From a virus: a stretch of 64,000 nucleotides of DNA. Within the stretch, counting starts at the first letter, position 1. Each line of letters starts with the position of its first letter. The notes beneath the pieces were generated by a model. That model ran no database searches, had not been told where the DNA came from, and saw only the letters and a program-made list of their open reading frames with translations. The DNA is taken from the IMG/VR virus record IMGVR_UViG_3300035390_000009, positions 6,318-70,317 of that record. One strand, written 5' to 3'. Both the position numbers and the translations under genes were made by a program. Positions 24,793-64,000 of the stretch are shown here, in pieces.

Positions 24793-24793
24793 A

Positions 24794-25039
24794 ATGACAC
24801 TGGTAAATGAATATTTAGAATATATACAAGAAGCTAATAGAAAACAAAAATCTAGAACTACCATTAGTAGGCAAACAAAAATTAAAAGATCTCAAGGTCA
24901 ATTATCAACTTCTATGGCAAGAAAGGGAAATGATCCTTTATATAAAATGATGAAAAAATATTGTGATATGTGTAAAAGTTATAGAACAAAAGTTCATAAA
25001 AAATATGCTGGTAGAACTCGATCCCAAGCCAGAAGATAA
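24794..25039 (+). CDS. Small basic protein
   Basis: Overlap-type coupling; K/R-rich. Confidence 0.7.
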   Translation: MTLVNEYLEYIQEANRKQKSRTTISRQTKIKRSQGQLSTSMARKGNDPLYKMMKKYCDMCKSYRTKVHKKYAGRTRSQARR

Positions 25040-44089: not shown

Positions 44090-44109
44090 TTCTCCTCGAA
44101 AGGGAAACC

Positions 44110-44131
44110 CTATAGTTAATAATATATATAG
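44110..44131. promoter_or_regulatory. Motif B copy
   Basis: CTATAGTTAATAATATATATAG followed by TTATAATGG upstream of 44162. Confidence 0.45.
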
Positions 44132-44161
44132 AAAAACGTTTTATAATGGAGGGAAATTTAA

Positions 44162-44728
44162 GTGAATTACAAAGATAAAGTTAATGAATTACTAGAAAAG
44201 AATATGACTGAGAAAGGGTATAAACTATGGTTAGGTATCAACACAATGGTTGTTGATATATGGAATAGACCTTCATCTAGTTCTGGTAAATATCATAAGA
44301 AAAGCGATGGTAGAGTCCATGATATAGCTGAGCATACATATGAAATGTTATATAATGCCATGAAGATTATTAGACTATTTGATATTACTTCAAATACTAG
44401 TAGATGTGATGCTATGTTATTTGCTATTGGACTCCATGATATATTAAAGTATGGTGAGCATGGAGAATTGAAGCATACTACAGGCAAGCATGATCAGTTG
44501 GCTGGTGATTTAATATCAGGCAACTTTGATACCTTTAGAAAAGTTATGGGTGACAATGATGTTTTGATTATGGCTGAGGCTGCAAGATATCATAGTGGTC
44601 GTTGGAGTACTGACGTTAAGGTTAGGAATGCATTTGATTGGAAAACCTTTAACCCTGAAACCTTATTTGTTCATATAATGGATATGCTTAGTACTGGCGA
44701 TTGTTTGAATCTACCGGAGGAAAAATGA
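44162..44728 (+). CDS. HD-domain phosphohydrolase
   Basis: SGKYH, EH, GLHDILKYG, H, RYHSGRW, VHIMDML. Confidence 0.8.
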   Translation: MNYKDKVNELLEKNMTEKGYKLWLGINTMVVDIWNRPSSSSGKYHKKSDGRVHDIAEHTYEMLYNAMKIIRLFDITSNTSRCDAMLFAIGLHDILKYGEHGELKHTTGKHDQLAGDLISGNFDTFRKVMGDNDVLIMAEAARYHSGRWSTDVKVRNAFDWKTFNPETLFVHIMDMLSTGDCLNLPEEK

Positions 44729-45366: not shown

Positions 45367-46149
45367 ATGGGTTCACTATCAAATTATGTCGAAGACGAAG
45401 TCCTGGATCATGTATTAAAAACAGGTGACTGGGCACAACCTGCTGCACTATATGTAGCACTTTCAACTGCAGATCCTACAGATGATGCATCTGGAATTTT
45501 AGAGCCTGTTGGAAATGGCTATGCAAGAGTAAGTCATGCAGCATGGGATGTAGCAGCTTCAAGAGCTACTGAGAATACTGGAACTATCAGTTTCCCAGAA
45601 GCAAGTGGTGCTTGGGGAACTATTACCCATTTCTTTATTTCTGATGCTTCTACAGCTGGAAATATGATAGCACATGGCGCATTGTCTGCATCCAAAACTA
45701 TTGGTGCTGGCGATAATGCATCTTTCCAAGATGGCGCTATTGATGTATCTTTTAACACTGGTGGTATTGCTACATTCTTAGCTAATGCTGTTCTTGATCA
45801 TATCTTTGGTAACACTGCATATGATACTACAGCTACTATTTATGTTGCTCTTTCATTAGCTAATCCTACAGATGATGGTTCAGCAGTTGATGAGCATTCT
45901 GGTGATGCTTATGCCAGAGTTGCTCATAATACTTGGGACGTTTCAAGTGGTGGTGCTACTGAGAATGATGGCGCTATTACATTCCCTCAAGCATCTGCAG
46001 CATGGGGTACTGTCACACATTTTGCAATGTTTGATGCTGCTACTGCTGGTAATATGTTGTTTTATGGTTCTCTCGATAATGCTAGAAACATTGGACAGAA
46101 TGATACACCTTCATTTGCTGATGGCGCATTAGATATTACTATGGACTAA
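45367..46149 (+). CDS. Phage tail-associated protein with two tandem copies of one ~130-aa domain
   Basis: LYVALSTADP..GYARV..FPEASGAWGTITHF..DA..AGN is repeated as IYVALSLANP..AYARV..FPQASAAWGTVTHF..DA..AGN; AAGGAGG SD. Confidence 0.75.
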   Translation: MGSLSNYVEDEVLDHVLKTGDWAQPAALYVALSTADPTDDASGILEPVGNGYARVSHAAWDVAASRATENTGTISFPEASGAWGTITHFFISDASTAGNMIAHGALSASKTIGAGDNASFQDGAIDVSFNTGGIATFLANAVLDHIFGNTAYDTTATIYVALSLANPTDDGSAVDEHSGDAYARVAHNTWDVSSGGATENDGAITFPQASAAWGTVTHFAMFDAATAGNMLFYGSLDNARNIGQNDTPSFADGALDITMD

Positions 46150-46185: not shown

Positions 46186-46240
46186 CCCTCTCATTGAGAA
46201 CATATTATAAATATTAATCAATGAGAGGGTTTTTTCCGTC
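46186..46240 (+). promoter_or_regulatory. Hairpin with motif A in its loop and the SD in its 3' arm
   Basis: CCCTCTCATTGA (46186-46197) pairs with TCAATGAGAGGG (46218-46229); GAGAACATATTATAAA at 46196; TTTTTTCCGTC directly before ATG 46241. Confidence 0.75.
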
Positions 46241-47035
46241 ATGAAAATAAGTGAAACTAAATCATTAATAAGAAAAAATGAATATAAACATTATGTATAT
46301 GGTATAATATCACCATCAGGCAAACCATTTTATATAGGTAAAGGCCAAGATTATAGATTTCAACTTCATTTAGCTGAAGCTATTAACACAGATAATAAAA
46401 ATTTAAAATTGAGTATAATCAGAGGGATTATAAAATCTAACAAAAGATTAAACTATAAAATTTATGGATTTTATAAAACAGATGAAATTGCATTGGTAGT
46501 TGAAAAATTTTTAATATTATATTATGGTAGGATTGATTTAAAAACTGGAATACTAACTAATCTAACTGATGGTGGTGGTCCAAGAAATTGTGCTGAGGAA
46601 TCATTAAAAAAATTAAGTGATTCAATTAAAAATTATGTTTTAACACATCCAATAGAACATAAATCTTATCAAAAAAATGCAACAAAAGTTAAACAATTAC
46701 CTGAAGTAAGAAATAAATATAGAAAAGCCCAATTAGATTATATGAAATCATTTCCAGATGAACATGTTGATACTATGGCTAAAACACATAAGACTAGAAG
46801 AAAACCAGAGAATAGAAAAGCTAATAGTAAACGTTTGAAAGAATATTTTAAAGATCCTAAAGCGAGAAAGAAAAATAGTGAAGCCCAAAAATTAGCTCAT
46901 AAAAGAAAAAGATTAGTTATAGATAGATGTAAAAATTTAATAGATTCTAACTTTTTAAATATTCAGTTACCATCAACTACTAAGAGTATTAAAGTTTTTG
47001 AAGAATTAGAAAAGAAATTACTTGAATTAATTTAA
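46241..47035 (+). mobile_element. Free-standing GIY-YIG homing endonuclease gene
   Basis: YVYG...PFYIGKG...R, E..LI..YGR.D...GILTNLTDGG, basic repetitive C-terminus; K-rich composition unlike the flanking tail genes. Confidence 0.8.
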
Positions 47036-47040
47036 GTTTC

Positions 47041-47083
47041 AAACCCTCTCACTATTTTATTAGGTGAGAGGGTTTTTTCCGTC
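47041..47083 (+). terminator. Terminator hairpin, near-copy of the 46186 element
   Basis: AAACCCTCTCAC-loop-GTGAGAGGGTTTTTTCCGTC. Confidence 0.8.
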
Positions 47084-47182: not shown

Positions 47183-49621
47183 ATGGCGAATTATATATAC
47201 GGAGCTGTTGCTTTAAATGGTGGGGTTACAGGTTCATTAGATTCTATTGATGGAACTGACCTTGCTCAAGGCGATGCAGCAATTGTTTTTACATCAGATG
47301 CTACATATATTTATACATTAGATGAATCAAGTGGTGGTACTGAAAGTTCGCCTGATTTAATCTCACCAGATGCAAATGAAGAAAACAAGAGATGGATTTT
47401 AGTTTCAAGTAGAGCTGCTGAGTCAGCATTAGATGTCACTACATTTAATGGTATACTTGATGCTAACGATGATGATGTTCAAAAAGCATTGATAACAATT
47501 GATGATATGTTTGATAGTGGAGATTTTACTATTGCACCTGGATCAGTTACATTAGTTGATACTGTAGTAAAAGTAATTACTACTGATAATGGTACAGTAG
47601 GTGTTGTTGGTCATTCATTGGCTATTAATGGTACTGGTAAAGTTAATACCACAGGATCAGGATCAGCAGTATCAATTGCAGTTGATGATCTTAAAGTTGT
47701 AACTAAAACAGCTGCTTATTCTATTACTACTGCCGATGATATTGTTATTGGTGATTGTTCTGGTGGAGATATTGAATTAACATTACCTCAAGCAGCAACT
47801 AAATCATCTATTTCAATTTTTAAGAAATCATCTTCTAATACATTAACAGTTAGTTGTTATGGATCAGAAACTATTGAAGCTAATACCTCATATACTATAG
47901 ATGACGAGTATGGTTGTTTAAGACTAATTTCTGATGGTGTTAATACATGGGTAAGAAGTGCTGAGATGTATGATCTACCAACTGCTTCTTCATCATTATT
48001 AGGTGGTGTTAAGATTGGTGATTCCCTTAAGATTGCCGCTGGTATTGTTGATGTTGATTATTCAGCAGTTGATGTTGATATTATTCCTGACGTTGATATT
48101 ACTAGATCATTAGGTAGTGCATCTAAACAATGGAAAGATGTTTTCGTTGGACCTGGATCTTTATATGTAAATGGTCAACAAGTTTTATCAGATGAATCAG
48201 GAACAATTGTTTGTAGTGCTGATCCAGATCAAAACCTTCAATTTAAAACTCTTGGTTCTGGTGAACTTCAATTGTTACCTGCTGGTACTGGTTCAATTCA
48301 AATGAAAGGTAATTTCTCAATTTTAGCTGGTAAAAATATAATGTCAAGTGATGGTAATGCTATTAATTATAGTGATGGCATTGATATGAATGGAAATTCA
48401 ATTACTGGATTACCGTTACCATCTGCTGGAGGTGATGTAGCTACAAGAGATTATGTAAATACCTATTCTTCTAATGCAAGTAATCTTTCTACTGGAACTA
48501 TACCAACTTCAGTGTTACCACCTATTGCTATTACAACTACACAAACTGCTGTTTCAGAAATTGCTATGTTAGCATTAGTTACTCAAGAAGGTGATGTTGT
48601 AGTTAGAACAGATGAAAGCAGATCTTATATTAGAAATGCTGGTGTCTCTGGAACTATGTCAGACTTCAATGAACTTGCAACACCTACTGATTCAGTTCTT
48701 AGTGTTAATGGTGAAACAGGAGCAGTTACAATAAATCAAGATGAGGTTCTTGATGGTTCAACATATGTAAGAACAGCTAATGACTTTACTGATATTCTTA
48801 AAATTAAACTTGATGGAGTTGAGGCAGGTGCTGATGTTAACATGACTCCAGCAGAACTATTGACTGCTATTAAAACAGTTGATGGTCCTGGTTCTGGATT
48901 AAATGCTGATCAATTAGATAATATGGATTCAGCTAATGCAGCTACTGGTAATACAATTGTTGCAAGAGATTCTAATGGTGATGCTACATTTAGATATATG
49001 AATTGTAATGCTATAAATACTAGTATAGCTCAATCTGCTAATAATGCTCATACTATATTTTATTCTTCAACTGATGCTTTTATTAGAAAAAATACTGCTG
49101 CAGGATTTAAAGCTTCTCTTGATTTAGATCAAGTAGAAAACTTACCAGCATCTACTGGCTCAGTTGGTAATAACTTAGTACTAAGAGATGCAAGTGGAAA
49201 TTTTGCTGCTAATATTATTACTGCTACTGTTACTACTGCTAGATATGCTGATTTAGCTGAAAAACATACATGTGCGAATAAAACACTTATTACTGGTACT
49301 GTTATTTGTGCTTGTACTCAAGGTGAGTATGAAGTAGAAGAATGTTCAGATGAAAAGGCATCAAATGTTGTTGGTGTTGTTTCAGAAAAAGCTGGTTATA
49401 TAATGAATGAAGGACTAGAAGATAGTATAATTGTTGGTCTTACTGGTAAAGTCCCAGTTAGAATTATTGGTGAAGTTAAGAAAGGTGAACCAATTGTTTC
49501 AGCTGGAAATGGATGTGCAAGACAAGCAATTACTGAAATGGAACTTCTGTATAAGATGGGAGTTGCATTAGAAGATAATAGTGACATAAATGAAAAATTA
49601 GTTTATTGTGCTATAAAATAA
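47183..49621 (+). CDS. Tail fibre-like protein
   Basis: Modular Gly/Ala/Thr/Ser-rich sequence; LPTASSSLLGGVKIG, GSGLNADQLD, C-terminal ARYADLAE...VGVVS...VGLTGKVPVRI..V.KG..IVS fibre tail domain. Confidence 0.78.
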   Translation: MANYIYGAVALNGGVTGSLDSIDGTDLAQGDAAIVFTSDATYIYTLDESSGGTESSPDLISPDANEENKRWILVSSRAAESALDVTTFNGILDANDDDVQKALITIDDMFDSGDFTIAPGSVTLVDTVVKVITTDNGTVGVVGHSLAINGTGKVNTTGSGSAVSIAVDDLKVVTKTAAYSITTADDIVIGDCSGGDIELTLPQAATKSSISIFKKSSSNTLTVSCYGSETIEANTSYTIDDEYGCLRLISDGVNTWVRSAEMYDLPTASSSLLGGVKIGDSLKIAAGIVDVDYSAVDVDIIPDVDITRSLGSASKQWKDVFVGPGSLYVNGQQVLSDESGTIVCSADPDQNLQFKTLGSGELQLLPAGTGSIQMKGNFSILAGKNIMSSDGNAINYSDGIDMNGNSITGLPLPSAGGDVATRDYVNTYSSNASNLSTGTIPTSVLPPIAITTTQTAVSEIAMLALVTQEGDVVVRTDESRSYIRNAGVSGTMSDFNELATPTDSVLSVNGETGAVTINQDEVLDGSTYVRTANDFTDILKIKLDGVEAGADVNMTPAELLTAIKTVDGPGSGLNADQLDNMDSANAATGNTIVARDSNGDATFRYMNCNAINTSIAQSANNAHTIFYSSTDAFIRKNTAAGFKASLDLDQVENLPASTGSVGNNLVLRDASGNFAANIITATVTTARYADLAEKHTCANKTLITGTVICACTQGEYEVEECSDEKASNVVGVVSEKAGYIMNEGLEDSIIVGLTGKVPVRIIGEVKKGEPIVSAGNGCARQAITEMELLYKMGVALEDNSDINEKLVYCAIK

Positions 49622-49747: not shown

Positions 49748-50116
49748 ATGGCTGACTTAATTATACGGAAACGAAACCTAGTAGTATCAATGGGTGGAGC
49801 TTCTTCCGTAAGGTCAGTGAGCAGATATTCAGATTTTGCTCTGTTGATGTTCTTTGGTGGAACCGCTAAAGTATCAACAATTATTCAAACTGTAAATACT
49901 ATAGTAATTGAATCAGTCTCTCATGTAGCTATTGAAACTGATTGCGTTTCCTTATCTACTAACGTCTGTATTGGTACGTCAATACAAACCCATGGTCCTC
50001 CTATGGTAGATATTAAATCGTTCCTCCATTCTTTTACTGTATTTACAGTTATTTCAAGTACCTACCATGACTATAAAACAAATAATTTTTTAAAAAATAT
50101 AAGTAGATGCGGTTAG
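49748..50116 (+). CDS. Hypothetical beta-rich protein (MADLI N-terminus)
   Basis: GGAGG SD; directly precedes the giant repeat genes. Confidence 0.65.
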   Translation: MADLIIRKRNLVVSMGGASSVRSVSRYSDFALLMFFGGTAKVSTIIQTVNTIVIESVSHVAIETDCVSLSTNVCIGTSIQTHGPPMVDIKSFLHSFTVFTVISSTYHDYKTNNFLKNISRCG

Positions 50117-50144: not shown

Positions 50145-53100
50145 ATGGCTGATATTATTTTTATAAATAGAAGTAGTGTAAAATGGAATGATACATATGA
50201 TAGTTATATGGTTAATTCAGTTGTTGGTGGGGATACTATAGCAGGAGCTCAAATGACTTTAGGTAGTAATGAAACATTATCTGCTTCCTCTGTATCTGTT
50301 AGTTTAGTTGATGTTATTATGACTGCCGGTATTGCTGAATTACTAGCCTCATCTAATACAATTACTACTAGTACACCATCTGCGATTTTAACTATAGGTG
50401 TAATTGAAGTATTAACTTCTGTAAGCGATAGTTTAGTTAATATTTCTGCATGGATTACAATGGGTGTAGCTACTGACGTTGCTGGATCTCTTTCTTTCAC
50501 ATCAAATATAATTGATACTGAGTTAACTATTGGTGTAGTTGAAATTGTATCTTCAACTGTTGCATATACATCAGTTACTGCTGGTCCATTACTTGCTATT
50601 GGTAGAGATGAATTATTAACATCTAGTCAAACATCAACTGCATTTGTAACCGGTTTGTTAGATCTTGGTGTAACAGAGTTACTTGCCTCATCATCATCAA
50701 ATGCCTCAACTACAGATGCTTGGTTGCAAATAGGTATTCTTGAACCATTGAGCTCTACTGCTACTTGTGTTGTTAATGAAACTGATAAAGAATTAACAAT
50801 GGGAGAAGAAGTTGAATTATCTAACGGTATTATTATTCAATCAAACTCTGTTTCCTTATTAGACTTAGGGGTTTCTGAATTATTAGCATCTACTGGTCCT
50901 ATTAGTTCTACTGTTTCAGCCGCAGTTATTACAATGGGTATTGATGAAGATTTATCTTCAACTATAAATATTGATTCTATTGTTTCCATTGTGAACCTTA
51001 TTAAAGGACATGTAGAAGTTCTTACTGCTACTATTGTTTTAGTTAGTCCTGTAAGTTCTCCAGATATTGTTACAGGGATTCAAGAAGCTACAGCTTCAAC
51101 TGGATCAATTGTTTCAACTATATTAAATACTGAATTAACAATGGGTTTGGAGACATTGATATCATCATCTATTAACTTAGAATCACAAGTTAGTTCATTC
51201 TTGAACTTAGGTGTTACTGAGGTATTAGAAGGAACTATCAATTTCACTAGTTCTATAAGAGAAGGTGGACAATATCTTGATCTTATCATAGGTATTCAAG
51301 AATTACTTGCATCGACTTCAGTTGATACATCTAATGCTATTGCTGAATTAACTCTTGGTAGTAATGAACCATTGAGTCATAGACTTAATAATCCAGAATT
51401 TACCAGCGATGGTGTAACAAGATTATTATATAATTTTAATAGTCTACCTATAGTTGATGAATCTCTTTATAACCATAACGCATCTGCTTACCCCGCTTCT
51501 TTATCAGGTACTCCTATATTTGGCGCTGATTCTTTAAATCCGGAAATAGGTTCAGTTGAAGTAGGTAATATTAATACTACTTTAAATTATGGCACTGGGA
51601 ATTTTTGTATAGAATTTTGGTTAAAAGATCCTGGCATTAAAGAAACTGGAGATGGTTATAGTATTCTTGATAGATTAAAATTTACTGGAGATGCAGGAAC
51701 TCAAGGTGTATATGATGCTAGTGCATATGATTCAGAAGTATTTCTTTATACTAAACTATCTAATGGAACATTAAGATTTAGTTATAGAAGTCAAGAATTT
51801 CAATATTGGTTAGGTGCTGGATATGATCATGTATATTATGGAGCATCTATCTATGTTGATCTTCCTGGAGATACTTTAGACGAAAATACTCATATTGCTA
51901 TATTTAGATATGATGGTAATATTTATTTATCTGTAAATGGTGTAATTCATGGAAATTCTATATATGATGGTTGCCCAAATCTTTCAGGCGGTACATTCGA
52001 TATTGGTAATAAACTTGGAACATATACTAACCCTGAATTAAGTATAGATTCTTATAGAATTAGTTCTGCATCAAGATATACACCTGAGACATTTGAGCCT
52101 TTAAATTATTTAAAACATATTGAATCTAATATTACTTCTGATATTACATTGGGTCTTGCAGAATTACTTGCATCAACTACAGCTAATACATCTGATGCTA
52201 TTGCTGATATAGGATTTGGTGGGTTTGAACCATTAGCTCATACTACTTCAGATGTAATTAGTAATGCTAGTGCTGTAACAATTGTATTTGGTGTTACTGA
52301 AGTATTATCAGCTTCATCCAATATAACTTCTAATTCTAACTCTACTTTAACATTAGGTATAACAGAATTAGTAGCATCAACAATTATAAATACTTCATCA
52401 GCATCTGCCACATATATAATATTCGGTGGGTTTGAAATATTAACTTCAACTTCTTTAGTGACTACTACAGTTTCATGTAATACTATTGATTTTGGTGGGT
52501 TTGAACCATTAGCTCATACATTAATTCCATCTGGTTATGTTGGTGATTGGAATGATTTATTTCAAACACCAGATGATCATTTTGTAGCTTCAATAATTAC
52601 ATCAGTATTACTTAAAGGTGTTGATGAAATTTTAACTGCAACAAGTGATACTACTACAGATGTTCAGGTCTATATTAACCTTGGTCAGAACGAGAATATG
52701 ACTTCAACAGCAAATATTGTATCAGTTGTAGATTCAGCTATAACATTAGGTGTAACAGAAGATTTAACTGCTACTATTGGACCTATCTCTACAATTTCTA
52801 ATAGTTTATTAACTATAGGTATTGATGAATTATTAGGTGATGTTGACAATGCTCTTTCATCTTCAGTAACTGCTAGTTTATCATTTGGTGTTGCAGAAGA
52901 ATTATCTCATACATTATATGAATTTTCATCTGGTCCTGTTGATCCTTATGTTATTACAGTAGCTTCTAATGCAGTATTAGATCTTGGTGTTGATGAAATA
53001 TTAGCTTTATCTGAATCTTCTACTAGTTCAACAAATGCTAGTTTAGTAATTGGTATTACTGAAGCATTAAGTTCTACTCAGTCTATTATTAGTACTATTG

Positions 53101-56100
53101 GATCTGGTGATTTAATTCTTGGTGTTGAAGAAGAATTATCAGATGAATGTGTATGTTGGACTTCTATCTCTGGCACATTAACGTCAGGATTAGTAGAAAT
53201 ATTATCATCATCAGTAGCTTCTAATTCAGTAGCAGACGCTGAATTAACATTGGGCCTTGATACACCATTATCTCATTCAATAACATTTACTCCTGGTGAA
53301 TCATTAGAAACAGGTAAATTATTTATTGATGGTGAAAGTGTAATACAAGATGAAAATGCAACATATACAATTACTACCATTGGTAATACTGCAGTTGATA
53401 CAAATGAGTATTGTCCAAAAGGTGACAGTTTAAGCTCAATTTATTTTGATGGAGATGGTGATGAATTAACAATTCCTTCAAGTTCTGATTGGGATTTAAA
53501 TAAAGATTACTTTACTGCTGACCTATGGGAAAAACCAACATTTGAGGATTCAGTTGGAACATGGATGGCTCACGAAGATCAATGGTCTATAGGCATTGGA
53601 TCAGATAATACTTTACGTGTACAGATTTATGATATTTCTGGTGTTATGTATTCTCCAAATAATATTAGTGCTTTAGTTGAAGATGCATGGGTTCATGTTG
53701 CTATAGTTAAAAATTTAAATGTTGTTAAAATTTATATTAATGGTTTACATACATCTACTATAAATATTACAAATGGTATAAAAAATGTAAATACTATACT
53801 ATCAATAGGTAAAGATAGTCATGGTTATATGGATAATATCAGAATAGATGATACAATACTTTGGACATCTGACTTTAATGTTGCATCTAATGAAAACTTA
53901 TTATATGAAACACAAAGTATTCCTGAACCTTATATAGTAATAGATACTATTGCTGCATTAACTCTTGGTATTGATACACCAATAAGTTCTACACAAGGAG
54001 TTATATCTACAACATCAATTTCCTTATTAGATCTTGGTGTTGATGTAATAAATGCTGGTGCTGTATTTAGTGTATCTGTTACTAGTGCTGATTTAATTAT
54101 TGGTCAAGATGAAATATTAACAGCAAGTGTTACTGCTCAATCTAATATAAGTTCTAATATTTCATTTGGTCAAGATGAACCTTTAAGCGCCTCTTCTGAA
54201 TTGGTTACTTCATTTGTTGCCCCATTATACTTAGGTGATACAGAGTATATGGGAATGTCAATTTCCACACAGTCTGTAACATATGCTAGTTTAGTATTAG
54301 GTGCAACAGAGTTATTAAGTGCTACAAGTGCCACAAGTCAATCAGCAATTGCTTTAATAAGTTTTGGTATTGTTGAAACTGCAAGTGTTAGTACATCATT
54401 CACTTCATCCTCAGCGGCTGACTTAACTATAGGTCATGTTGAGGAATTATCATCTACTCTGGATAGTGTTACATTAACTAATGATGTTGAAATGGATCTT
54501 GGTGGTCCAGTAGTATTAATAGGAAATACATTAGTTCAATCATATGCTATTTCAAGTACTTTAGTATTTGGTGTATCGGAATTAATGGCATCAACTATTA
54601 TATCAGCTTCAATAACTGATGCTACACTTGTATTAGGTATTGATGAACTAATGACTGCTACTGGAATAGTTACTTCTAATCCAGTTGGTTGGTTAACTAT
54701 GGGTATTGTTGAATCTTTAAGCGCGACTCAGGAATTTATTTCAACTAGTGATGCCATTGCTATTCTTGGTCTTGATGAAGTATTAGAAGCGGGTTCTATT
54801 ATTCAATCATTGGTTAATGGTGATGTTGGTCTTGGTACAATGGAAATGATGACATCAACTATTGGTCCTATATCTACTACAGGAGTTGCACTATTAGATT
54901 TAGGTGTAACAACAATTGTTGCATCAACAGGATCAATTGTTTCTAATCTTGGATCTAATTTAACTCTTGGTGCTCCAGAAGATTTATCATTTACTTGCGT
55001 TACTAATATTATAGGAGAAACTGGAGAATTATTCATTGATGGTGAAGGAATAATAGAGGATGAAAATGGAAATCATACTATAACAAATTATGGCATTCCA
55101 TCAATTGATCCATCTGAATCAGTTCAAGGTGAGTCAAGTATTTACTTCAATGGAGGTTCATATTTAGAAATAGCAGATAGTGAGGCTTGGAATTTTGGAG
55201 ATGATAATCTTACTATTGATTTCTGGATTAAACTTGAGAATTTAATAAATCCTCAATATATAATAAATCAATATGAGTCTGCAACTGAAAGATGGGATAT
55301 TTCTTATAATCCTACTAATGGAATTAGTTTTAATTTTAGAACTGCAGGGTCATTGGCATTACAATTAACTACAGGTGTTTCATCAAATACTACTGAGTGG
55401 CAACATATTGCATTAGTTAGAAATGTAAATGATTGGAGTATATATAAAGATAGTGTTTTAAAAGATTCTGAAACTCTTGATGTTACAATTCCAAATTATG
55501 CTAGTCCTTTATATATAGCATATAGACCTAACTATGCTTATAAAATGTCTGGTAATATGGATAATATAAGAGTAGTAAATGGTGATGCTCTTTGGACTTC
55601 TGAATTTGATATAGAAACTGATTTACAATATTCAGGTATTTCTGTTAATACTCATATAGCTGCTTCAGAAACTATTCCTGTATTAACTATGGGTATTGTT
55701 GAGGAATTATCATCAACTATTAATTTTACTACAGAGTCTGATGGTTCTATAGTTACTGGTATCATTGAAGTTCTTGCCACATTAGGATTTGGAATAGCTA
55801 TCACTAGTGCTGATATTACTATGGGTGTTGATGAACCATTAGCTCATACTGAAGTTGGGATAACTGGTCAATCTAATGTTGTTGCCGATCTTGGTATTCC
55901 AGGAAATTTAGAAGAATTATCATCAAGTATTTCTATTGAATTATATGCAGAGGCTACATCTCTTGATACTGGTGTAACTGAGTTAGTATCAGCATTTAAA
56001 ATGATATGGTCTCAAATTCACACTCCTGTAATTACATTTGGTGTAACTGAACTATTCAGTGGGTCTGTTTCAGTTAGTACAGTAGTTGGGACACCAGATA

Positions 56101-56504
56101 TGATTATTGGTATGCTTGAGATAATGTCAAGTACCTCATTCTCTGTAGTTGCTAATATAGTCGAGTTATCAATGGGTATTGGTGAATATGTATCATCAAC
56201 AGTAAATATTTCTTCTACTAGTGATGCATTATTAAGTACTGGCGATGATGAATTACTTGCCTCAACTATTATAACAACAGGTGCTGTTGCTGGTGAAATT
56301 ATCTTTGGTTTGATAGAGATGATTTCAGCTACAAGAATTGTCAACACAGTAACAATTGGACAAATCTTTGCAGGTATAGAAGAAATTCAAGAAGGTACTG
56401 TTGTATGTTCATCTAATACAACTGCCTTATTAGGATTAGATACTTGTTCTCTGGTACATAACAGAAGAAGATCAAGAAACGGTGGTATATTCATAACAAC
56501 ATAA
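50145..56504 (+). CDS. Giant 22-23 aa repeat protein (2119 aa) with three LamG/ConA-like domains
   Basis: Repeat [LIM]x[LIM]GxxExL[SA][ST]; LamG-like inserts near 51390-52130, 53290-53940 and 55010-55660 (F.IEFW, WVHVAIVK, KIYING, GYMDNIRI). Confidence 0.85.
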   Translation: MADIIFINRSSVKWNDTYDSYMVNSVVGGDTIAGAQMTLGSNETLSASSVSVSLVDVIMTAGIAELLASSNTITTSTPSAILTIGVIEVLTSVSDSLVNISAWITMGVATDVAGSLSFTSNIIDTELTIGVVEIVSSTVAYTSVTAGPLLAIGRDELLTSSQTSTAFVTGLLDLGVTELLASSSSNASTTDAWLQIGILEPLSSTATCVVNETDKELTMGEEVELSNGIIIQSNSVSLLDLGVSELLASTGPISSTVSAAVITMGIDEDLSSTINIDSIVSIVNLIKGHVEVLTATIVLVSPVSSPDIVTGIQEATASTGSIVSTILNTELTMGLETLISSSINLESQVSSFLNLGVTEVLEGTINFTSSIREGGQYLDLIIGIQELLASTSVDTSNAIAELTLGSNEPLSHRLNNPEFTSDGVTRLLYNFNSLPIVDESLYNHNASAYPASLSGTPIFGADSLNPEIGSVEVGNINTTLNYGTGNFCIEFWLKDPGIKETGDGYSILDRLKFTGDAGTQGVYDASAYDSEVFLYTKLSNGTLRFSYRSQEFQYWLGAGYDHVYYGASIYVDLPGDTLDENTHIAIFRYDGNIYLSVNGVIHGNSIYDGCPNLSGGTFDIGNKLGTYTNPELSIDSYRISSASRYTPETFEPLNYLKHIESNITSDITLGLAELLASTTANTSDAIADIGFGGFEPLAHTTSDVISNASAVTIVFGVTEVLSASSNITSNSNSTLTLGITELVASTIINTSSASATYIIFGGFEILTSTSLVTTTVSCNTIDFGGFEPLAHTLIPSGYVGDWNDLFQTPDDHFVASIITSVLLKGVDEILTATSDTTTDVQVYINLGQNENMTSTANIVSVVDSAITLGVTEDLTATIGPISTISNSLLTIGIDELLGDVDNALSSSVTASLSFGVAEELSHTLYEFSSGPVDPYVITVASNAVLDLGVDEILALSESSTSSTNASLVIGITEALSSTQSIISTIGSGDLILGVEEELSDECVCWTSISGTLTSGLVEILSSSVASNSVADAELTLGLDTPLSHSITFTPGESLETGKLFIDGESVIQDENATYTITTIGNTAVDTNEYCPKGDSLSSIYFDGDGDELTIPSSSDWDLNKDYFTADLWEKPTFEDSVGTWMAHEDQWSIGIGSDNTLRVQIYDISGVMYSPNNISALVEDAWVHVAIVKNLNVVKIYINGLHTSTINITNGIKNVNTILSIGKDSHGYMDNIRIDDTILWTSDFNVASNENLLYETQSIPEPYIVIDTIAALTLGIDTPISSTQGVISTTSISLLDLGVDVINAGAVFSVSVTSADLIIGQDEILTASVTAQSNISSNISFGQDEPLSASSELVTSFVAPLYLGDTEYMGMSISTQSVTYASLVLGATELLSATSATSQSAIALISFGIVETASVSTSFTSSSAADLTIGHVEELSSTLDSVTLTNDVEMDLGGPVVLIGNTLVQSYAISSTLVFGVSELMASTIISASITDATLVLGIDELMTATGIVTSNPVGWLTMGIVESLSATQEFISTSDAIAILGLDEVLEAGSIIQSLVNGDVGLGTMEMMTSTIGPISTTGVALLDLGVTTIVASTGSIVSNLGSNLTLGAPEDLSFTCVTNIIGETGELFIDGEGIIEDENGNHTITNYGIPSIDPSESVQGESSIYFNGGSYLEIADSEAWNFGDDNLTIDFWIKLENLINPQYIINQYESATERWDISYNPTNGISFNFRTAGSLALQLTTGVSSNTTEWQHIALVRNVNDWSIYKDSVLKDSETLDVTIPNYASPLYIAYRPNYAYKMSGNMDNIRVVNGDALWTSEFDIETDLQYSGISVNTHIAASETIPVLTMGIVEELSSTINFTTESDGSIVTGIIEVLATLGFGIAITSADITMGVDEPLAHTEVGITGQSNVVADLGIPGNLEELSSSISIELYAEATSLDTGVTELVSAFKMIWSQIHTPVITFGVTELFSGSVSVSTVVGTPDMIIGMLEIMSSTSFSVVANIVELSMGIGEYVSSTVNISSTSDALLSTGDDELLASTIITTGAVAGEIIFGLIEMISATRIVNTVTIGQIFAGIEEIQEGTVVCSSNTTALLGLDTCSLVHNRRRSRNGGIFITT

Positions 56505-56542
56505 AATGTTCTATTAACTAATTCTCAAAGGAAATAATACTT

Positions 56543-59500
56543 ATGAGTGATATAGTTTTTATAAATAGGGCAGATGTAAAATGGAATGATTCATATGAAT
56601 CTTATTTTATTAATTCTAATGTAAGTGGTGATACTTTAAGTGGTGCATCACTTATATTAGGATCAAGCGAAGTATTAGCAGGAAAATCTTTTTCAGTAAC
56701 ATCTGCAATTTCAATATTATCATTAGGGCTTGTAGAGATTTTAGCGTCTACTATTCCTACAACTTCTATCAGTGAAAATATTGAATTGTTTATAGGTGTA
56801 GCAGAAGAAATTTCATCTGGAACTATTATAGGAACAGTAGTTGATTCATTTTTAACAATGGGTTTAGCGGAAGGTGTTTCATCTACTAGTTCATGTCAAG
56901 TTATTATAACATCTAATTTAGATCTTGGTGTCGTTGAATTATTAGGTAGCTCAACATCTGTTGTTTCAAATACTGCATCTGAAATGACTATGGGTGCTGT
57001 TGAATTAGTAACTAGTAACATTCATGTTAATAGTACTACCACTACACCTCAATTATCGTCTGGTCGAATAGAACATTTAGTAGGATCAACATCTATAATT
57101 GAGAGCATAGTTTCTGGATTTATAATTCTTGGTACAGAAGAAGTTGTATTTGCTAGTTTTAATATAGATTCAAATGTCGATGCAGAATTAACTTTAGGAG
57201 TTGAAGTACCTTTATTCGCCACAGTTAACTTACAATCATTTGGCGAAGCTTTAATTACTATTGGTATATCAGAATTATTAGCTGTTTCATCTATTTCAAT
57301 AAGTTTAGCGACAGGATTATCAATTGATCTTGGTCAAGATGAACCATTAGATTCAACTACTTTAATTAATTCTATTACATCTGCTGAATTAATCCTTGGT
57401 CAATCTGAAATATTAAGCTCAAGCATTGATATAACAAATGATGTTGATAGTTTACTTACCCTTGGTGTTCATGTAATACTTGGTAGTATTATACCCACAA
57501 CATCTATTGTAGAACCAGAACTTACAATAGGACATATAGAACCTTTAGAATCAACATCATCAGTTGTATCATCAATTAGTTCATTCTTAATACTTGGTTT
57601 AACTGAACCATTATCCTCTGCAATACACCTACAAAGTTTTATAAGACAAGGTGGTGAATGGTCTAATCTTATAATTGGGCATACTGAGTTATTAACTCAT
57701 ACAGTTAATATTATATCTAGTATTGATCTAACTACTCTTGACTTGGGTGGTGGTATAGAAGAATTATCTCATACTAATATTATACCAGAAGATGTAATAT
57801 TCAGGAATACCCAAGATGTTCATTGGTATATTCCATACAATAATTATTTGGCTCAGTCTAATACATTTGTTGAGTTGACTTTAGGTCATGTTGAATTATT
57901 AGCAACATCTATTGCATATGCATCTGTATCTAATATTGCTGAATTAGAGATTGGAATAGATGAACCATTATCAGCTACAAATGATATAGAAACTGCTGCT
58001 AGTGCATTTATATTAATGGGAACAACTGAACAATTATCAGCTTCTATTAACACAGAGGTTATTCAAAATTCTTTATTAGTTATTGGTCAAATTGAATTAT
58101 TATCAAGTACTGTATTGTCTATTTCTATTACTGACTCTGATTTATTAATTGGTAATAGTGAAATTCAAACAGCAACTGCTTTAGCTCAATCTAATACATA
58201 TGCTGTATTATTAACAGGTTCTGATGAAAGCTTGAGTGGTTCTCTTAGTTTCTCTTCTAATGTGGAAGGAATTTTCTCATTTGGTATTATTGAATTTCTA
58301 TCTTCTTCATCATTAAATTTAAGTGTAGTTGATGTTGATTTAGAGATAGGAATAACAGAACCATTAGAATCTACAGATTTAATTCATACTTCATCTATTT
58401 CTGTTTTAACATTAGGTGTTGCTGAAATTTTAAGAGTTACTTCAAGTGTAATATCAACAACATCTAATTCAAACTTAACATTAGGTATTGTTGAATCTTT
58501 GAATGTTAATCAATTAATTAACTCCAATGCTTCTGCTATATTATCAACTGGTTTTTCTGAGGAACTATCAGCAACCATACTTATAAGTAGTAATATTCTT
58601 AATGATTTAACCATAGGTCATACTGAAATATTATTATCAACAGCTACTTCTATAAGTTCTGCTTTTAGTGGTCTCTTACTTACTGGTGAATTAGAAATAT
58701 TAGCTTCTTCAACATTTAGTGTTTCTATAACTGAATCTGAATTATCATTAGGGGTTTTAGAACCATTAACATCAACTATAGAGATAGAATCTCAAACTAG
58801 TGGCTTTATTATTAAAGGTGCAATTGAATCTATAAGTAGTTCTATTGATGTTCAAAGTTATATTAGAAAAGGTGGTAGATATAGTGAATTAACTCTTGGA
58901 ATAATTGAGGTATTAGAATATACAAAAACAATTGAAACAACTGTTTTAGAAACTGATTTAATTCTTGGTTCTGATGAATCTTTATCATTTACATATTATT
59001 TTATGGGTAGTTCTGAGGCAGATGCTTTATTGACTACAGGTAAGATTGAAATATTGGGTTCATCATCTATTAGTCAAACAGTAGTAGCAACAAATTTGAC
59101 TATTGGTCATGTTGAGGAATTAAGTGGGTTAACTATTTCTATTGTTAAGGTTGAGCCTATATTAACCTTAGGTGTTTCAGAAGAATTATCATCATCTATT
59201 GATATAGTGAGCGTTGTTGATGCTGATATTATAATAGGTGTCTTAGAGTTGTTAGCGTCTACAATTGCTACAACATCTAAAGTTACACTTGATATGGTTC
59301 TTGGTCTTGATGAACCATTATCAACTGGAGCTATTGTAGTAAGTAATGTTAATACATTTTTATTACTTGGTAGAGCAGAACAATTAGATGCCTCAATTCA
59401 TATCACTACTTCTATTTTGACTGATGTATACTTAGGAGTTGGCGAGCAATTATCAACACCAATAGATATTACATCTAATGTAAGTCTTCCAAATCTTGAG

Positions 59501-62500
59501 ATAGGTATTGTTGAATTATTAACTGGTAATCCATCTCTATCTGTAGATATTACAGCAGTATTAGGTTTAGGTATATTAGAAGTAGTAGCAGCAACATCTA
59601 TAACACAATCTAATTTGCCTGGAGATTTAACTTTAGGTGTGTCTGAACCATTAGAAGTTAATAATTTAATTCAATCAACTGTTAATGCTGACTTAGAGTT
59701 AGGTGCCGCTACACCATTATCAGCAACTACTAATATTATATCTTATAGTATAAGTTTATTGACTGTTGGTAAGGCAGAGTTACTTGCTTCATCAAATTTT
59801 TCTATATCAATAACAGATGCCACAATAACATTGGGTATTGATGAACCTCTATCTCACACAAGTGTAATAGAAACATCATCAGATGCCAACATTACAATGG
59901 GTATTGACACACCTCTATCTAACAGTACCACTTTATCAAGTCTTGTTGGTACTGGCAATTTAGTAGTTGGTGCATCTGAGTTATTAGCTTCAACAAATTT
60001 CTCTATATCAATAACAGATGCCACAATATCATTTGGATCTGATGAACCATTATCAAGTTCAATTTTAGTACAAAGTTATACTAATGATGGTCCTTTAATT
60101 ATAGGTATAGATGAACTATTAGCTTCTGCTAATGCATCGGTTACTAGGTTCCCACCAGCTGAGTTAGATCTTGGTGCTCCTGAACCTCTTACATCTACAG
60201 CTATTGTTCAAGCATATGTTGCAGATGTATTAGATCTTGGTATATATGAACCATTATCAAGTACTATTTCTATTAGTCATTTAGTTGAAAATACTATTGA
60301 TATAGTTATTGGTGGTCCTGTACCAGTTGATGCGACAATTGAAATTGAATCTAAAGCTTATGGGTCTTGGTTATATGTACCAGGTAATTTAGAAGAATTA
60401 GAATCTACTATCAACATTATATCTAACATTCAACCTAATTTAATTACTGATAATGAATTATTAGAATCTACTGATAATATTATAACAACAGCCTATGGTA
60501 GTGCATTAAGTATTGGAGTTATAGAAATTGTAGCTGGTACTAACTTTGCTATATCAGTTACAGGATCTGAGTTAAAACTTGGTGTTTCTAGCATACTTGA
60601 TTCAAGAACTAATGAAATTGTTAGTAATATATATAATACTGAATTAACACTTGGTAGAAATGAACCTTTAGATGGGGTAATTGTAGTTGAAATTATATCT
60701 AATATTTATGCTGATTTAGTTATCGGTGTAGTTGAATTGTTATCAAATTCAGTATTTAGTATTTCAATTATAGATGCAGATTTATTAATTGGTAGAGTAG
60801 AAATATTATCTGCAACAATTAATAGCACAAGTAAGACTAAAGCTTTCTTAGGAATTCCTGGTGTATTAGAAACATTAGAAGTAACAGATAATGTAATTTC
60901 AAATGTATCTACTACTGGATTGGTTATTGGTAATGTTGAAGTAAATGGTAGTGTTTCTAATATTATTTCATTTGCAATAGCAGATCTTAGACTTGGTGAT
61001 AGTACAGATTTAAGTGGTCGTGTACATATCCCATCTTTTATATATACTAAACAAGATTTAATGTTTGGTGTTATAGAAGAATTATCTGGAGAAACTAGTA
61101 CCATATCTAATATAATTGGTTCTATTGATAGTCCATGTATACTTGAAAGTACTGTTATTATATCATCATATGTAACTGTTGACACATTTATATTTGGACA
61201 AGATGAAGATCTTAGTTCTTCAATTGATATAACAACAGAATCTGATGCATTAATGGTAACTGGTGATCTTACAGAATTATCTGGACATATTCAACTTGCT
61301 AAATCATTTGCCTTAGGTTATCTTACTAACCCAACTATATACTTAAATTCAGACAAATATTCTGCATGGAATAAACCAACATCATATGTTAGAGCTAGTT
61401 TTATTGATATAGATGGTATTATTGAAGTTGATACTAATATTGGTATAGTTTCTATTGTTGGTGATGTTGAAATAACAATGGGTCTTCCAGATGAATTAAA
61501 TGGTACAGCCACAATAGAATCATTGATAAATAATGCTGAGTTATTCATTGGACATACAGAATTAGTTGCAACTACAAACTTTTCTATCTCTATAACTGAT
61601 GCCTATTTAACACATCCTGTAATTTATGTATCTTCAAATATAAACATTCAATCTAATGTATTAGATACTGTAGTTACTGGACCAGAACATCTTTATGGTT
61701 CATCTTTTATAGTTAGTATTGTTGATGGTAATATTGTTGATGGTAGAGTTGAATTAGTTTCAGCTCATGAAAGTATAATTAGTAATATCAATGTTGAATT
61801 AACGATTGGTATTATAGAAGAATTAAGCTCTAGAATTAATTCAATTACTTCTATATCTATACCAGAAATAATTTACAATGTATACTTAGAATCAGATGAA
61901 ACATCTCTATGGAATAAAGTTATATCAAATGTAACTGATTCATATCTAAGAGTTCTTTCTGGATATTATACATCATTATGTACAGTCAATACACAGGGAC
62001 TCCCAAAAGTTCTAACATTAGGTATTGTTGAAGAGTTAGACACAACTATTTTAGCTGAATCTAATGTTGTTGCTGAATTAACAACAGGTTATGCTACTCA
62101 TTTATCTTCAACTATTTTATTTAGATCTAATTCTAATGCAGTAATTACTAGATCAGATTATATTGGTTCTTCTCACTCAGAAACTGAATCATGGGCAGTT
62201 CTAACATTAGGTGTTGCTGAGCACTTTGAAAGTGGTTCAATTAATATACAATCTAATATTAGTAATGACGGTTTAATAATTGGTGCAATTGATCTATATG
62301 TTGACTACAATATTATTTCAAATGTTGATTCTGAATTAGATTTACAATATGCAATAAAAAGTACTGCGACTATTCAATCATTAGTTGATGTAGAACTATC
62401 AGTTGGTACAGTTACATCTTTAGAACATTCATCAGTTATTACTACTAATGTATCTAATTCTGAATTAGAGATGGGAGCTCTTGTATCATTAACAGCAGAT

Positions 62501-64000
62501 TTATTTGTTGAATCTCATGTTGATGGTTTTATCTATACTGGAATGGAATATGGTATTAGATCAGATATTCATATACAAAGTTTAGTTAATGAATCCGAAT
62601 TATTTATTGGAGATGCAGCATCATTATTTGGACAGGCTAATGCTCAATCATTAATTATAACACCATATATGTTTAGAGGAAGATTTGAAAGTCTATCTGC
62701 TTCTAATGTTGTAATTACTTCTTATGCTGGTTTAGATATTATAATTGGTGTTGTTGAATTACTAACAAGCATTATTGCAACACATTCAGTTACAGATGCT
62801 GAGTTAACTATTGGTATTGAAACTGATCTTACCGCAACATCTATTATAGAGTCAGCTTCAAGTGGACATATAATAATAGGAACCACTGAGATACTGTCAT
62901 CAACGGGTCTAATTACTTCTTATACTGGTTTAAGCGATGAACTATATATAAGTATTGCTATTGATGGAACGATAGTAAATACCTCATATACACCAGTTGC
63001 TGATGTTGTTATTGGAACACAAGAATCTATATCAGCAAGTATTGTTATAGGATCATCTGCTAATGTTGAATATATTGATGGAGCTATTGAACCTCTATTT
63101 GCTACTGTATCACTTACTACTAATGCCGGTTGTATTATAGATGTTGGTTTAGCTACAGCCTTAGCTGGATCAGCTATTTTTAGTATTAATATTTATGACA
63201 TAGATTGTTGGGGAATTGTTGAGGTATTAACAAGTTCTATTAATATTAAAACAAAGTCTGATACATTCTTGAACTTAGGTGTTGCTAATCAATTAGCAAG
63301 CTCAGTTAATATTGTTCAAACTACTACATCATCTGATTTAATTATTGGTTTAGTAGAAGTATTATCAGCTACAACTACTCCTTGGGTTGAGTCTAATTCG
63401 GATACATTATGGTTGGACATAGAGCATAGAGCAAGTGCTATTAGTCAGTCTATCATACCAGATGTTAGTATAACAATGGGTCATCTTGATAACTCGGTAT
63501 CAAGTTCAGTTGTTATTAGTACTGAATGTACAATTGATCCAATGTATTTTGGTGAAGATGAAATCCTATCAGCTAAATCATTTACTAAGGTTAATGTTGC
63601 AATTGAATTAACTCTTGGTGTTAGTAATGAATATCTTGAATCTTCAATTGAATGTAGTACTGTTATTGGTACTGCCACTGAATTAGAAAGTGAAACAATT
63701 GATAGACTTAATAGAAGAATTACTGCTGATTTACAATATTGGTATGATCATTTCGTTGTAAATAACAAATCATTAAACTTACATCAAATAGGTTTTCCAT
63801 CAAGAGATCATGTTTATGAACAATCATTTATAGAGTTATTATTTAATGATGAATATGATAAAACAAGCTATAGATATATGTATAGAGAAATTTTAGATAA
63901 ATCATCATGGCCAGATGCTATTAGACAAAGAATGATGTTAGATCCTGAAACTGCTCACTATTATATAGCAGATGGAGATAATCCAAAAGAATATAATATA
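56543..64000 (+). CDS. Second giant repeat protein, over 2486 aa, 3'-truncated by the window (absent from track)
   Basis: ATG 56543 MSDIVFINRADVKWNDSYESY matches MADIIFINRSSVKWNDTYDSY of 50145; in frame at all spot checks (57.6, 58.9, 61.3, 61.8, 63.9 kb) and open at the window end (...IADGDNPKEYNI). Confidence 0.88.
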   Translation, partial: MSDIVFINRADVKWNDSYESYFINSNVSGDTLSGASLILGSSEVLAGKSFSVTSAISILSLGLVEILASTIPTTSISENIELFIGVAEEISSGTIIGTVVDSFLTMGLAEGVSSTSSCQVIITSNLDLGVVELLGSSTSVVSNTASEMTMGAVELVTSNIHVNSTTTTPQLSSGRIEHLVGSTSIIESIVSGFIILGTEEVVFASFNIDSNVDAELTLGVEVPLFATVNLQSFGEALITIGISELLAVSSISISLATGLSIDLGQDEPLDSTTLINSITSAELILGQSEILSSSIDITNDVDSLLTLGVHVILGSIIPTTSIVEPELTIGHIEPLESTSSVVSSISSFLILGLTEPLSSAIHLQSFIRQGGEWSNLIIGHTELLTHTVNIISSIDLTTLDLGGGIEELSHTNIIPEDVIFRNTQDVHWYIPYNNYLAQSNTFVELTLGHVELLATSIAYASVSNIAELEIGIDEPLSATNDIETAASAFILMGTTEQLSASINTEVIQNSLLVIGQIELLSSTVLSISITDSDLLIGNSEIQTATALAQSNTYAVLLTGSDESLSGSLSFSSNVEGIFSFGIIEFLSSSSLNLSVVDVDLEIGITEPLESTDLIHTSSISVLTLGVAEILRVTSSVISTTSNSNLTLGIVESLNVNQLINSNASAILSTGFSEELSATILISSNILNDLTIGHTEILLSTATSISSAFSGLLLTGELEILASSTFSVSITESELSLGVLEPLTSTIEIESQTSGFIIKGAIESISSSIDVQSYIRKGGRYSELTLGIIEVLEYTKTIETTVLETDLILGSDESLSFTYYFMGSSEADALLTTGKIEILGSSSISQTVVATNLTIGHVEELSGLTISIVKVEPILTLGVSEELSSSIDIVSVVDADIIIGVLELLASTIATTSKVTLDMVLGLDEPLSTGAIVVSNVNTFLLLGRAEQLDASIHITTSILTDVYLGVGEQLSTPIDITSNVSLPNLEIGIVELLTGNPSLSVDITAVLGLGILEVVAATSITQSNLPGDLTLGVSEPLEVNNLIQSTVNADLELGAATPLSATTNIISYSISLLTVGKAELLASSNFSISITDATITLGIDEPLSHTSVIETSSDANITMGIDTPLSNSTTLSSLVGTGNLVVGASELLASTNFSISITDATISFGSDEPLSSSILVQSYTNDGPLIIGIDELLASANASVTRFPPAELDLGAPEPLTSTAIVQAYVADVLDLGIYEPLSSTISISHLVENTIDIVIGGPVPVDATIEIESKAYGSWLYVPGNLEELESTINIISNIQPNLITDNELLESTDNIITTAYGSALSIGVIEIVAGTNFAISVTGSELKLGVSSILDSRTNEIVSNIYNTELTLGRNEPLDGVIVVEIISNIYADLVIGVVELLSNSVFSISIIDADLLIGRVEILSATINSTSKTKAFLGIPGVLETLEVTDNVISNVSTTGLVIGNVEVNGSVSNIISFAIADLRLGDSTDLSGRVHIPSFIYTKQDLMFGVIEELSGETSTISNIIGSIDSPCILESTVIISSYVTVDTFIFGQDEDLSSSIDITTESDALMVTGDLTELSGHIQLAKSFALGYLTNPTIYLNSDKYSAWNKPTSYVRASFIDIDGIIEVDTNIGIVSIVGDVEITMGLPDELNGTATIESLINNAELFIGHTELVATTNFSISITDAYLTHPVIYVSSNINIQSNVLDTVVTGPEHLYGSSFIVSIVDGNIVDGRVELVSAHESIISNINVELTIGIIEELSSRINSITSISIPEIIYNVYLESDETSLWNKVISNVTDSYLRVLSGYYTSLCTVNTQGLPKVLTLGIVEELDTTILAESNVVAELTTGYATHLSSTILFRSNSNAVITRSDYIGSSHSETESWAVLTLGVAEHFESGSINIQSNISNDGLIIGAIDLYVDYNIISNVDSELDLQYAIKSTATIQSLVDVELSVGTVTSLEHSSVITTNVSNSELEMGALVSLTADLFVESHVDGFIYTGMEYGIRSDIHIQSLVNESELFIGDAASLFGQANAQSLIITPYMFRGRFESLSASNVVITSYAGLDIIIGVVELLTSIIATHSVTDAELTIGIETDLTATSIIESASSGHIIIGTTEILSSTGLITSYTGLSDELYISIAIDGTIVNTSYTPVADVVIGTQESISASIVIGSSANVEYIDGAIEPLFATVSLTTNAGCIIDVGLATALAGSAIFSINIYDIDCWGIVEVLTSSINIKTKSDTFLNLGVANQLASSVNIVQTTTSSDLIIGLVEVLSATTTPWVESNSDTLWLDIEHRASAISQSIIPDVSITMGHLDNSVSSSVVISTECTIDPMYFGEDEILSAKSFTKVNVAIELTLGVSNEYLESSIECSTVIGTATELESETIDRLNRRITADLQYWYDHFVVNNKSLNLHQIGFPSRDHVYEQSFIELLFNDEYDKTSYRYMYREILDKSSWPDAIRQRMMLDPETAHYYIADGDNPKEYNI

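Follow-up and report, generated by a model that had tools for sequence, protein, structure and literature searches.

Cryo-electron microscopy (cryo-EM) of the phages GP4, Bas63 and A1002 has revealed fibres in which Gp80-like dimers are threaded on a "rope", the strands of which complete the incomplete β-sandwiches of the beads (PMC12609058; PMC13730344). These bead-chain fibres, solved between 2023 and 2026 in three phages, carry 2, 5 and 11 bead dimers per rope. In Fiber I of GP4, a podophage of Ralstonia, the gp80 dimers are held by a rope protein that is the product of another gene, and docked on the gp77 adaptor. In the collar-whisker complex of Bas63, an Escherichia myophage (Felixounavirus), the whisker dimers wrap around the rope (PMC12609058), which briefly extends the collar protein at its N-terminus and bears two dimers. 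The longest solved rope is that of the Pseudomonas podophage A1002, where the nozzle-rope protein gp39 carries fiber I and fiber II dimers and a terminal Ig-like domain; its fiber-dock of ~268 residues accommodates 11 dimers over ~300 Å, amounting to ~24 residues and ~27 Å per dimer (PMC13730344). Here we describe a 64,000-nucleotide stretch of viral DNA (the window; bases 6318-70317 of the linear 79,155-bp IMG/VR virus record IMGVR_UViG_3300035390_000009; CheckV completeness ~49%; GC content ~30%), in which two giant tandem genes, encoding the repeat proteins P1 and P2, are located downstream of a gene for a Gp80-like protein. We suggest, with a probability of roughly 0.55, that P1 and P2 each form a giant rope from a single chain, in which every repeat docks one fused Gp80-like bead, with lectin domains interspersed along the chain.

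Two features overlooked in the initial annotation of this DNA, namely the LamG domains inserted in P1 and the fused Gp80-like bead gene upstream of it, point to such a beads-on-a-rope architecture; the presence of the repeat in two further proteins of the phage was likewise missed. The locus resembles that of GP4 Fiber I in encoding a homologous PF23140 bead protein and a candidate rope with a short periodic repeat, the latter encoded apart from but near the bead gene. It differs in that ~57 and ~90 sites are present in P1 and P2, as opposed to five dimers per rope in GP4, in that the bead is a covalently fused pseudo-dimer, unlike GP4 gp80, and in that lectin domains are inserted in the ropes, the sequences of which are dissimilar to that of GP4. 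Furthermore, the virus analysed here is a large contractile-tailed phage, whereas GP4 is a podophage. With Bas63 the system shares the myophage background, Gp80-like dimers on a proposed rope and the placement of the genes between the head and sheath modules, but stand-alone proteins of 2100-2600 aa (amino acids) take the place of a short extension. The A1002 rope, in turn, is part of the nozzle protein, works with two bead proteins, lacks lectin inserts and is ~8 times shorter than P2. Its ~24 residues per dimer are nevertheless close to the 22/23-residue period of P1 and P2, a match shown at the level of periodicity.

Two giant proteins built from 22- and 23-residue repeats

P1 (50145-56504, + strand; 2119 aa) comprises a 36-aa N-terminal module and ~57 repeats, is interrupted by three LamG inserts and ends in a basic tail. 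P2 (56543-64000, + strand) is open at the window end, and its stop codon is located 282 nt past this point in the 79,155-bp contig, giving a protein of 2579 aa with the N-terminal module, 86-95 repeats and a non-repeat C-terminal domain of ~200 aa. With a loose regular expression for the repeat motif, P1 yields 61 sites and P2 yields 82, far above the 12.6 and 14.6 obtained in 200 shuffles (maxima 21 and 26). The spacing between sites is overwhelmingly 22 (26 times in P1, 42 times in P2) or 23 residues (14 and 13 times, respectively), and the identity autocorrelation peaks at lag 22 (0.19-0.22 vs a mean of 0.09). The two tandem repeat arrays recognised in the initial annotation are thus real, and its estimates of ~60 and ~100 repeats compare with the ~57 and at least 86 units obtained by a register-aware count. 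The repeat consensus is L-x-[LIM]-G-[VI]-x-E-x-L-[SA]-[SA]-[TS]-x-x-[IV]-x-S-x-[VT]-x-[AS]-[DE], in which the glycine at position 4 (G4) is present in 100% and the glutamate at position 7 (E7) in 77-89% of the units. Both proteins are, as had been described, acidic (pI 4.05), rich in serine and threonine (S+T 24%) and poor in lysine and arginine (K+R ~2-2.6%), and I+L+V make up ~28-32% of their residues. This acidity is not peculiar to P1 and P2, as it is equalled by that of the bead protein and of the fibre protein encoded nearby. No tandem repeat was found at the DNA level in the P1/P2 array, indicating that the array is ancient and diverged, and ruling out an assembly artefact.

A marker variant of the repeat (S.IR.GG.[YW]), already noticed in the initial annotation, forms a 27-residue unit at aa 369-383 of P1 (51249-51293, + strand) and recurs at aa 365-379 (57635-57679, + strand) and aa 772-786 (58856-58900, + strand) of P2. 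The I, G and G of this variant are unchanged in six homologues.

The N-termini of P1 and P2 had been described as nearly identical; 23/36 residues are in fact identical (62.5% over 40 aa), so that they are homologous. P1 and P2 are paralogues with a common N-terminal module, and its pattern, MADxIFxNRxDVKWNDxYDSY, is common to all giant members of the family. Elsewhere in the contig the module could be detected only inside P2 (E 8e-4), besides weak MADII-type starts. This internal copy, at aa 415-440 (window ~57785-57862), is a second, diverged version of the N-terminal anchor module, and looser look-alikes are observed in P2 near aa 1600 and 1790. The presence of the second copy suggests that P2 originated from shorter rope genes that became joined end to end. 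That P1 and P2 themselves are fused by read-through or a frameshift was rejected, given that P2 starts with a complete N-terminal module of its own and that two genes are retained in the orthologues. Two antisense open reading frames (ORFs) located within P1 and P2, at 56018-56347 and 60706-61185, were judged spurious.

The initial annotation could not assign the repeat to a named family, and this stands: searches of the repeat against Pfam, PHROG and PDB sequences gave no match, and P2 yielded neither a Pfam match at E-values up to 1 nor a PHROG match. Megablast and tblastn comparisons of the region, together with a search with the P1 N-terminus, identified no match among 50,697 phage records, and the matches of an ESM Atlas feature search were all viral clusters without a name, below 0.9. 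HMMER, run exhaustively over 1.84 billion representatives, recovered only 29 relatives, and a word-indexed search of 5.8 billion recovered 14, all of them metagenomic. The repeat family is missing from Pfam, and the repeat alignment, A2, could serve to define it.

A hidden Markov model (HMM) of the repeat, built from A2 and searched against 502 ORFs, identified two further proteins of the phage. The first, P3 (751 aa), is encoded by the next gene downstream of P2, just past the window, and carries the repeat in its C-terminal part (E 1e-8); a PDB search with P3 gave no match. The second is a 197-aa protein (24199-24792, + strand; E 1.3e-16) with a MADIIL start, ~6 repeats and a Cys-containing C-terminal end, hereafter the mini-rope. 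Four phage proteins with differing ends thus carry the repeat, as is expected of a docking module, and P3 and the mini-rope would represent shorter ropes. The mini-rope gene is preceded by a metallophosphatase-like gene. After it comes an ORF of 81 aa that weakly matches the lambda gpK tail-fibre-assembly family (Caudo_TAP; E 0.014), the mini-rope gene and this ORF together extending over window positions 24199-25039. A further beaded-fibre unit, of small size, may be located here, away from the main one.

The fused bead gene and its genomic context

The bead gene (45367-46149, + strand) is located ~4 kb upstream of P1 and encodes a 260-aa protein composed of two fused PF23140 domains (Pfam E 7e-77, 2 stretches), each of which scores above the Pfam cut-off. 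Pfam describes this family as "Podophage GP4 fiber I protein gp80", and the bead protein matches GP4 gp80 itself (PDB 8JOU; E 4.9e-11). Its two halves share 62/130 identities (48%). A consensus Shine-Dalgarno sequence, AAGGAGGA, is present 7 nt before the ATG, and a terminator-like hairpin with a U-run (46186-46235, + strand) directly follows the gene at its 3′ end, with a second copy at ~47041-47081 (folding energies -20 to -22 kcal/mol; z -3.3 and -5.0 for the two copies). Both the consensus ribosome-binding site and the strong terminator hairpin would fit a high bead-to-rope expression ratio.

The bead gene precedes a p260-p122-P1-P2-P3 module in 4/4 independent loci, namely the window itself, L004/L005, L006, and L001 with L015 (207-kb contig, also with a sheath gene). 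The gene order is conserved as bead gene, a homing endonuclease gene in some loci, p260, p122, a P1-like gene with lectin domains, a P2-like gene without them, a P3-like gene and p274; in the window, p260 is fused to a tail-fibre-like C-terminus. The endonuclease is present in L006 and missing from L004. A role of P1 and P2 as components of very long virion fibres within a structural module, as put forward in the initial annotation, gains support from the tail-fibre-like gene upstream and from the sheath genes downstream in relatives.

A comparable arrangement can be observed in deposited phages. In 8-9/12 Gp80 phages the bead gene has, beside it or at most ~2 kb away, a gene for a protein with a 20-22-residue periodicity. 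The strongest 16-26-residue periodicity of the locus is shown by the immediately adjacent gene in GP4, C72C1, Bcep22, SP-15, Itty13 and Bane1 (z 3.2-11.6; period 20-21), and a periodic ORF is found within 2 kb of the Gp80-like gene in DB2 (period 22; z 19.9) and KKP_3916, while the periodicity near the Gp80 gene of CRP-4 is weak. A fused bead is otherwise present only in the record MW202476, where the next gene begins with 20-22-residue repeats and is the best non-self match of the repeat HMM (E 6e-4 among 502 ORFs). The candidate ropes of different phages look unrelated to one another in sequence, and homology to a solved rope may thus not be a usable criterion for recognising such proteins. 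A match to a family of known structure, which by the initial annotation would have counted against its reading, is thus half given: there are solved precedents for the architecture, but no sequence match to them.

Two of the deposited proteins are annotated otherwise. Octadecabacter virus DB2 gp11 (L023:6232-7758), annotated as "ribonuclease E", consists of very regular 22-residue repeats near a Gp80-like gene, and Mycobacterium phage Bane1 gp30 (L022:2824-3981), annotated as "structural protein", has very regular 20-residue repeats in the same setting. Both are likely to be rope proteins that were misannotated or left without an annotation.

Lectin inserts and the fold of the repeat

P1 contains Laminin_G_3 (PF13385) domains in three stretches (Pfam 93.4 bits vs a cut-off of 27.6), the boundaries of which were derived from the repeat register. 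Insert 1 (~aa 414-656; 51384-52112, + strand) follows the sequence ...EPLSH between repeat positions 12 and 13, insert 2 (~aa 1046-1261; 53280-53927, + strand) follows ...TPLSH, and insert 3 (~aa 1618-1836; 54996-55652, + strand), which contains the best Pfam stretch (1669-1812), follows ...EDLSF. In all three cases the domain precisely separates repeat position 12 from position 13, with the broken repeat continuing past the domain, which shows that the repeat accepts a whole domain in one loop. Among 14 family members, histidine occupies position 11 ahead of 22/59 large inserts vs 16/683 regular repeats. Equivalent sites in relatives hold up to eight LamG domains, F5/8 type C discoidin domains and inserts of other kinds. 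PF13385 is known from phage adhesins; the domains of P1 occupy a loop of the repeat, at one fixed position marked by His, and not the fibre tip. A PDB search with one LamG insert gave no match.

In the proposed rope mechanism, each 22/23-residue repeat would offer two short β-strand segments, around positions 22-5 and 13-19, which would complete the open β-sandwiches of one fused two-domain Gp80-like bead, as in GP4, Bas63 and A1002. The common 36-residue N-terminal module may plug the rope into an adaptor on the virion. The length of the fibre would then be set by the number of repeats and, at the ~27 Å per site of A1002, would come to ~150 nm in the case of P1 and ~240 nm in that of P2, a P1+P2 pair carrying ~150 beads. 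The LamG and discoidin domains, carried in the fixed His-marked loop between the two half-sites, would project from the beaded shaft as carbohydrate binders and could serve in adhesion to the host surface. There is no indication of a P1-P2 heterodimer or surface lattice, both of which the initial annotation had entertained.

Several observations weigh against this rope model. Neither a single repeat sequence nor the 99-row profile matched any PDB chain at E-values up to 10, so that known ropes, if present among the sequences searched, bear no recognisable relation to it. A phmmer search with GP4 gp77, an Ig adaptor of a kind that diverges fast, gave a best E of 0.2 in the 79-kb contig, which covers ~49% of the genome, and homologues of gp77, gp79, gp81 and gp82 were not found in the contig. 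GP4 gp79, which is encoded after gp80 and has a 20-residue period, is not among the PDB sequences, so that "rope" is a candidate label for this protein and the neighbourhood statistic rests on candidate ropes; in the same periodicity survey no periodic neighbour was found in the Gp80 loci of CcrBL9 and ACP17. Moreover, ~150 beads per P1+P2 set would be at least 14 times the largest solved case, and many copies of the bead would be needed per virion. Finally, the regular hydrophobic alternation of the repeat would equally suit a self-folding β-solenoid.

According to this alternative, the repeats fold by themselves into a long β-solenoid, β-helix or trimeric shaft, with one coil or rung per 22-23 residues and the LamG domains in loops, the Gp80-like gene belonging to a separate accessory fibre. 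Twenty-two residues per turn are typical of right-handed parallel β-helices, and the conserved hydrophobic positions 1, 3, 5, 9, 13/15 and 19, together with ladders of Ser and Thr, fit a stacked core. Phage fibres are, furthermore, usually homotrimers, and a classic fibre gene with an intramolecular-chaperone-like end is located just upstream. The AlphaFold2 (AF2) model of P2 residues 1-445, built on a 6-sequence alignment, is all-β with two strands per repeat, but it is a low-confidence model with a predicted local distance difference test (pLDDT) of 37. Eight repeats modelled with a 99-row in-register pseudo-alignment reached a pLDDT of only 50, and neither model formed a regular coil, whereas regular solenoids are usually predicted well; the self-standing β-solenoid or β-zipper of the initial annotation is thus unsupported. 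An ESMFold2 homotrimer of eight repeats (score 0.00), in which the fold of the chain itself was uncertain, weighs neither for nor against. Searches of Pfam, the PDB and PHROG also revealed no solenoid or fibre family that resembles the repeat and, with an invariant glutamate in each coil and K/R nearly absent, ~90 uncompensated charges would be stacked. A solenoid would moreover leave unexplained the strict bead-gene synteny, the period match to known ropes and the occurrence of a few repeat copies in short proteins with unrelated ends. We consider this alternative, the main rival of the rope model, the less probable of the two, and the low AF2 confidence weakly fits a chain that folds only on its partners, as the rope model would have it.

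P1 and P2 might otherwise be a decoration ("hair") of the capsid or sheath, or a loose, possibly glycosylated Ser/Thr-rich adhesin, that is, a flexible lectin-carrying brush in which the repeat is a spacer with no defined partner. The 24% Ser+Thr, the very acidic composition, the lectin domains and the lack of a confidently predicted fold would all agree with such a brush, and the initial annotation had suggested that the many Ser/Thr could carry the glycan made by the 1-11.8 kb operon. The conservation of G4, E7, L1 and L9 and the exact 22/23 spacing in distant homologues argue for a defined structure instead, and an I+L+V content of ~28-32% is too high for a disordered brush, making this a distinctly improbable explanation.

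Neighbouring genes and implications of the rope model

A GIY-YIG homing endonuclease gene (46241-47035, + strand; identified by PHROG) is located between the two terminator-like hairpins that follow the bead gene. The hairpins flanking it (CCCUCUCA...UGAGAGGG + U-run; window 46186-47083) are near-identical, and it looks as if the GIY-YIG gene was inserted into, and duplicated, the terminator after the bead gene. The next gene (47183-49621, + strand) encodes the 812-aa fibre protein, which matches PHROG tail and tail-fibre families. Its C-terminal part is tail-fibre-like and shows a borderline match to the Peptidase_G2 intramolecular chaperone (PF11962; 24.1 bits vs a cut-off of 25), while its N-terminal 260 aa (p260) correspond to a stand-alone gene in relatives by tblastn synteny. 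In L001 the two parts are carried as separate genes encoding 490-aa and 269-aa products. The possibility that p260 is itself a bead-like protein was rejected. Directly upstream of every P1-like gene a conserved gene, p122, is found (49748-50116, + strand; 122 aa), the product of which has a MADLII start as in the ropes and might serve as an adaptor or as a mini-rope.

The bead gene is closely preceded by two other genes (window 42989-44728), one caspase-like (Peptidase_C14; 103 bits) and one with an HD domain, the caspase-like gene being conserved at the corresponding position of L004/L005. Shortly past the window end, a helicase-like protein of 1014 aa (L002:13355-16399, - strand; contig 75354-78398; ResIII in the L001 relative) contains approximately nine tandem units of ~45-50 residues of the type AEKLAK-NGGKLP..WL..NGY....

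The bead-on-rope design itself is already known, and what is new here in comparison with the solved cases are the far larger candidate ropes, the fused bead and the lectin inserts. In its most far-reaching form, to which we assign slightly less than even odds, the rope model has P1 and P2 each threading ~60 to 90 fused-dimer Gp80 beads to form the longest known beads-on-a-string virion fibres (~0.15-0.25 micrometre and several MDa each), with lectins spliced in at the His-marked loop, and with fibre length and specificity evolving by the gain and loss of repeats and by cassette insertion. If the model is true, the bead-chain design would scale by an order of magnitude, and a class of giant, unannotatable and fold-less repeat ORFs in large uncultured phages would be explained. 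The number of repeats would provide a simple, evolvable ruler of fibre length. Furthermore, the fixed loop would provide a defined site at which receptor-binding domains may be swapped without disturbing the fibre, which would be useful in the engineering of phage adhesins.

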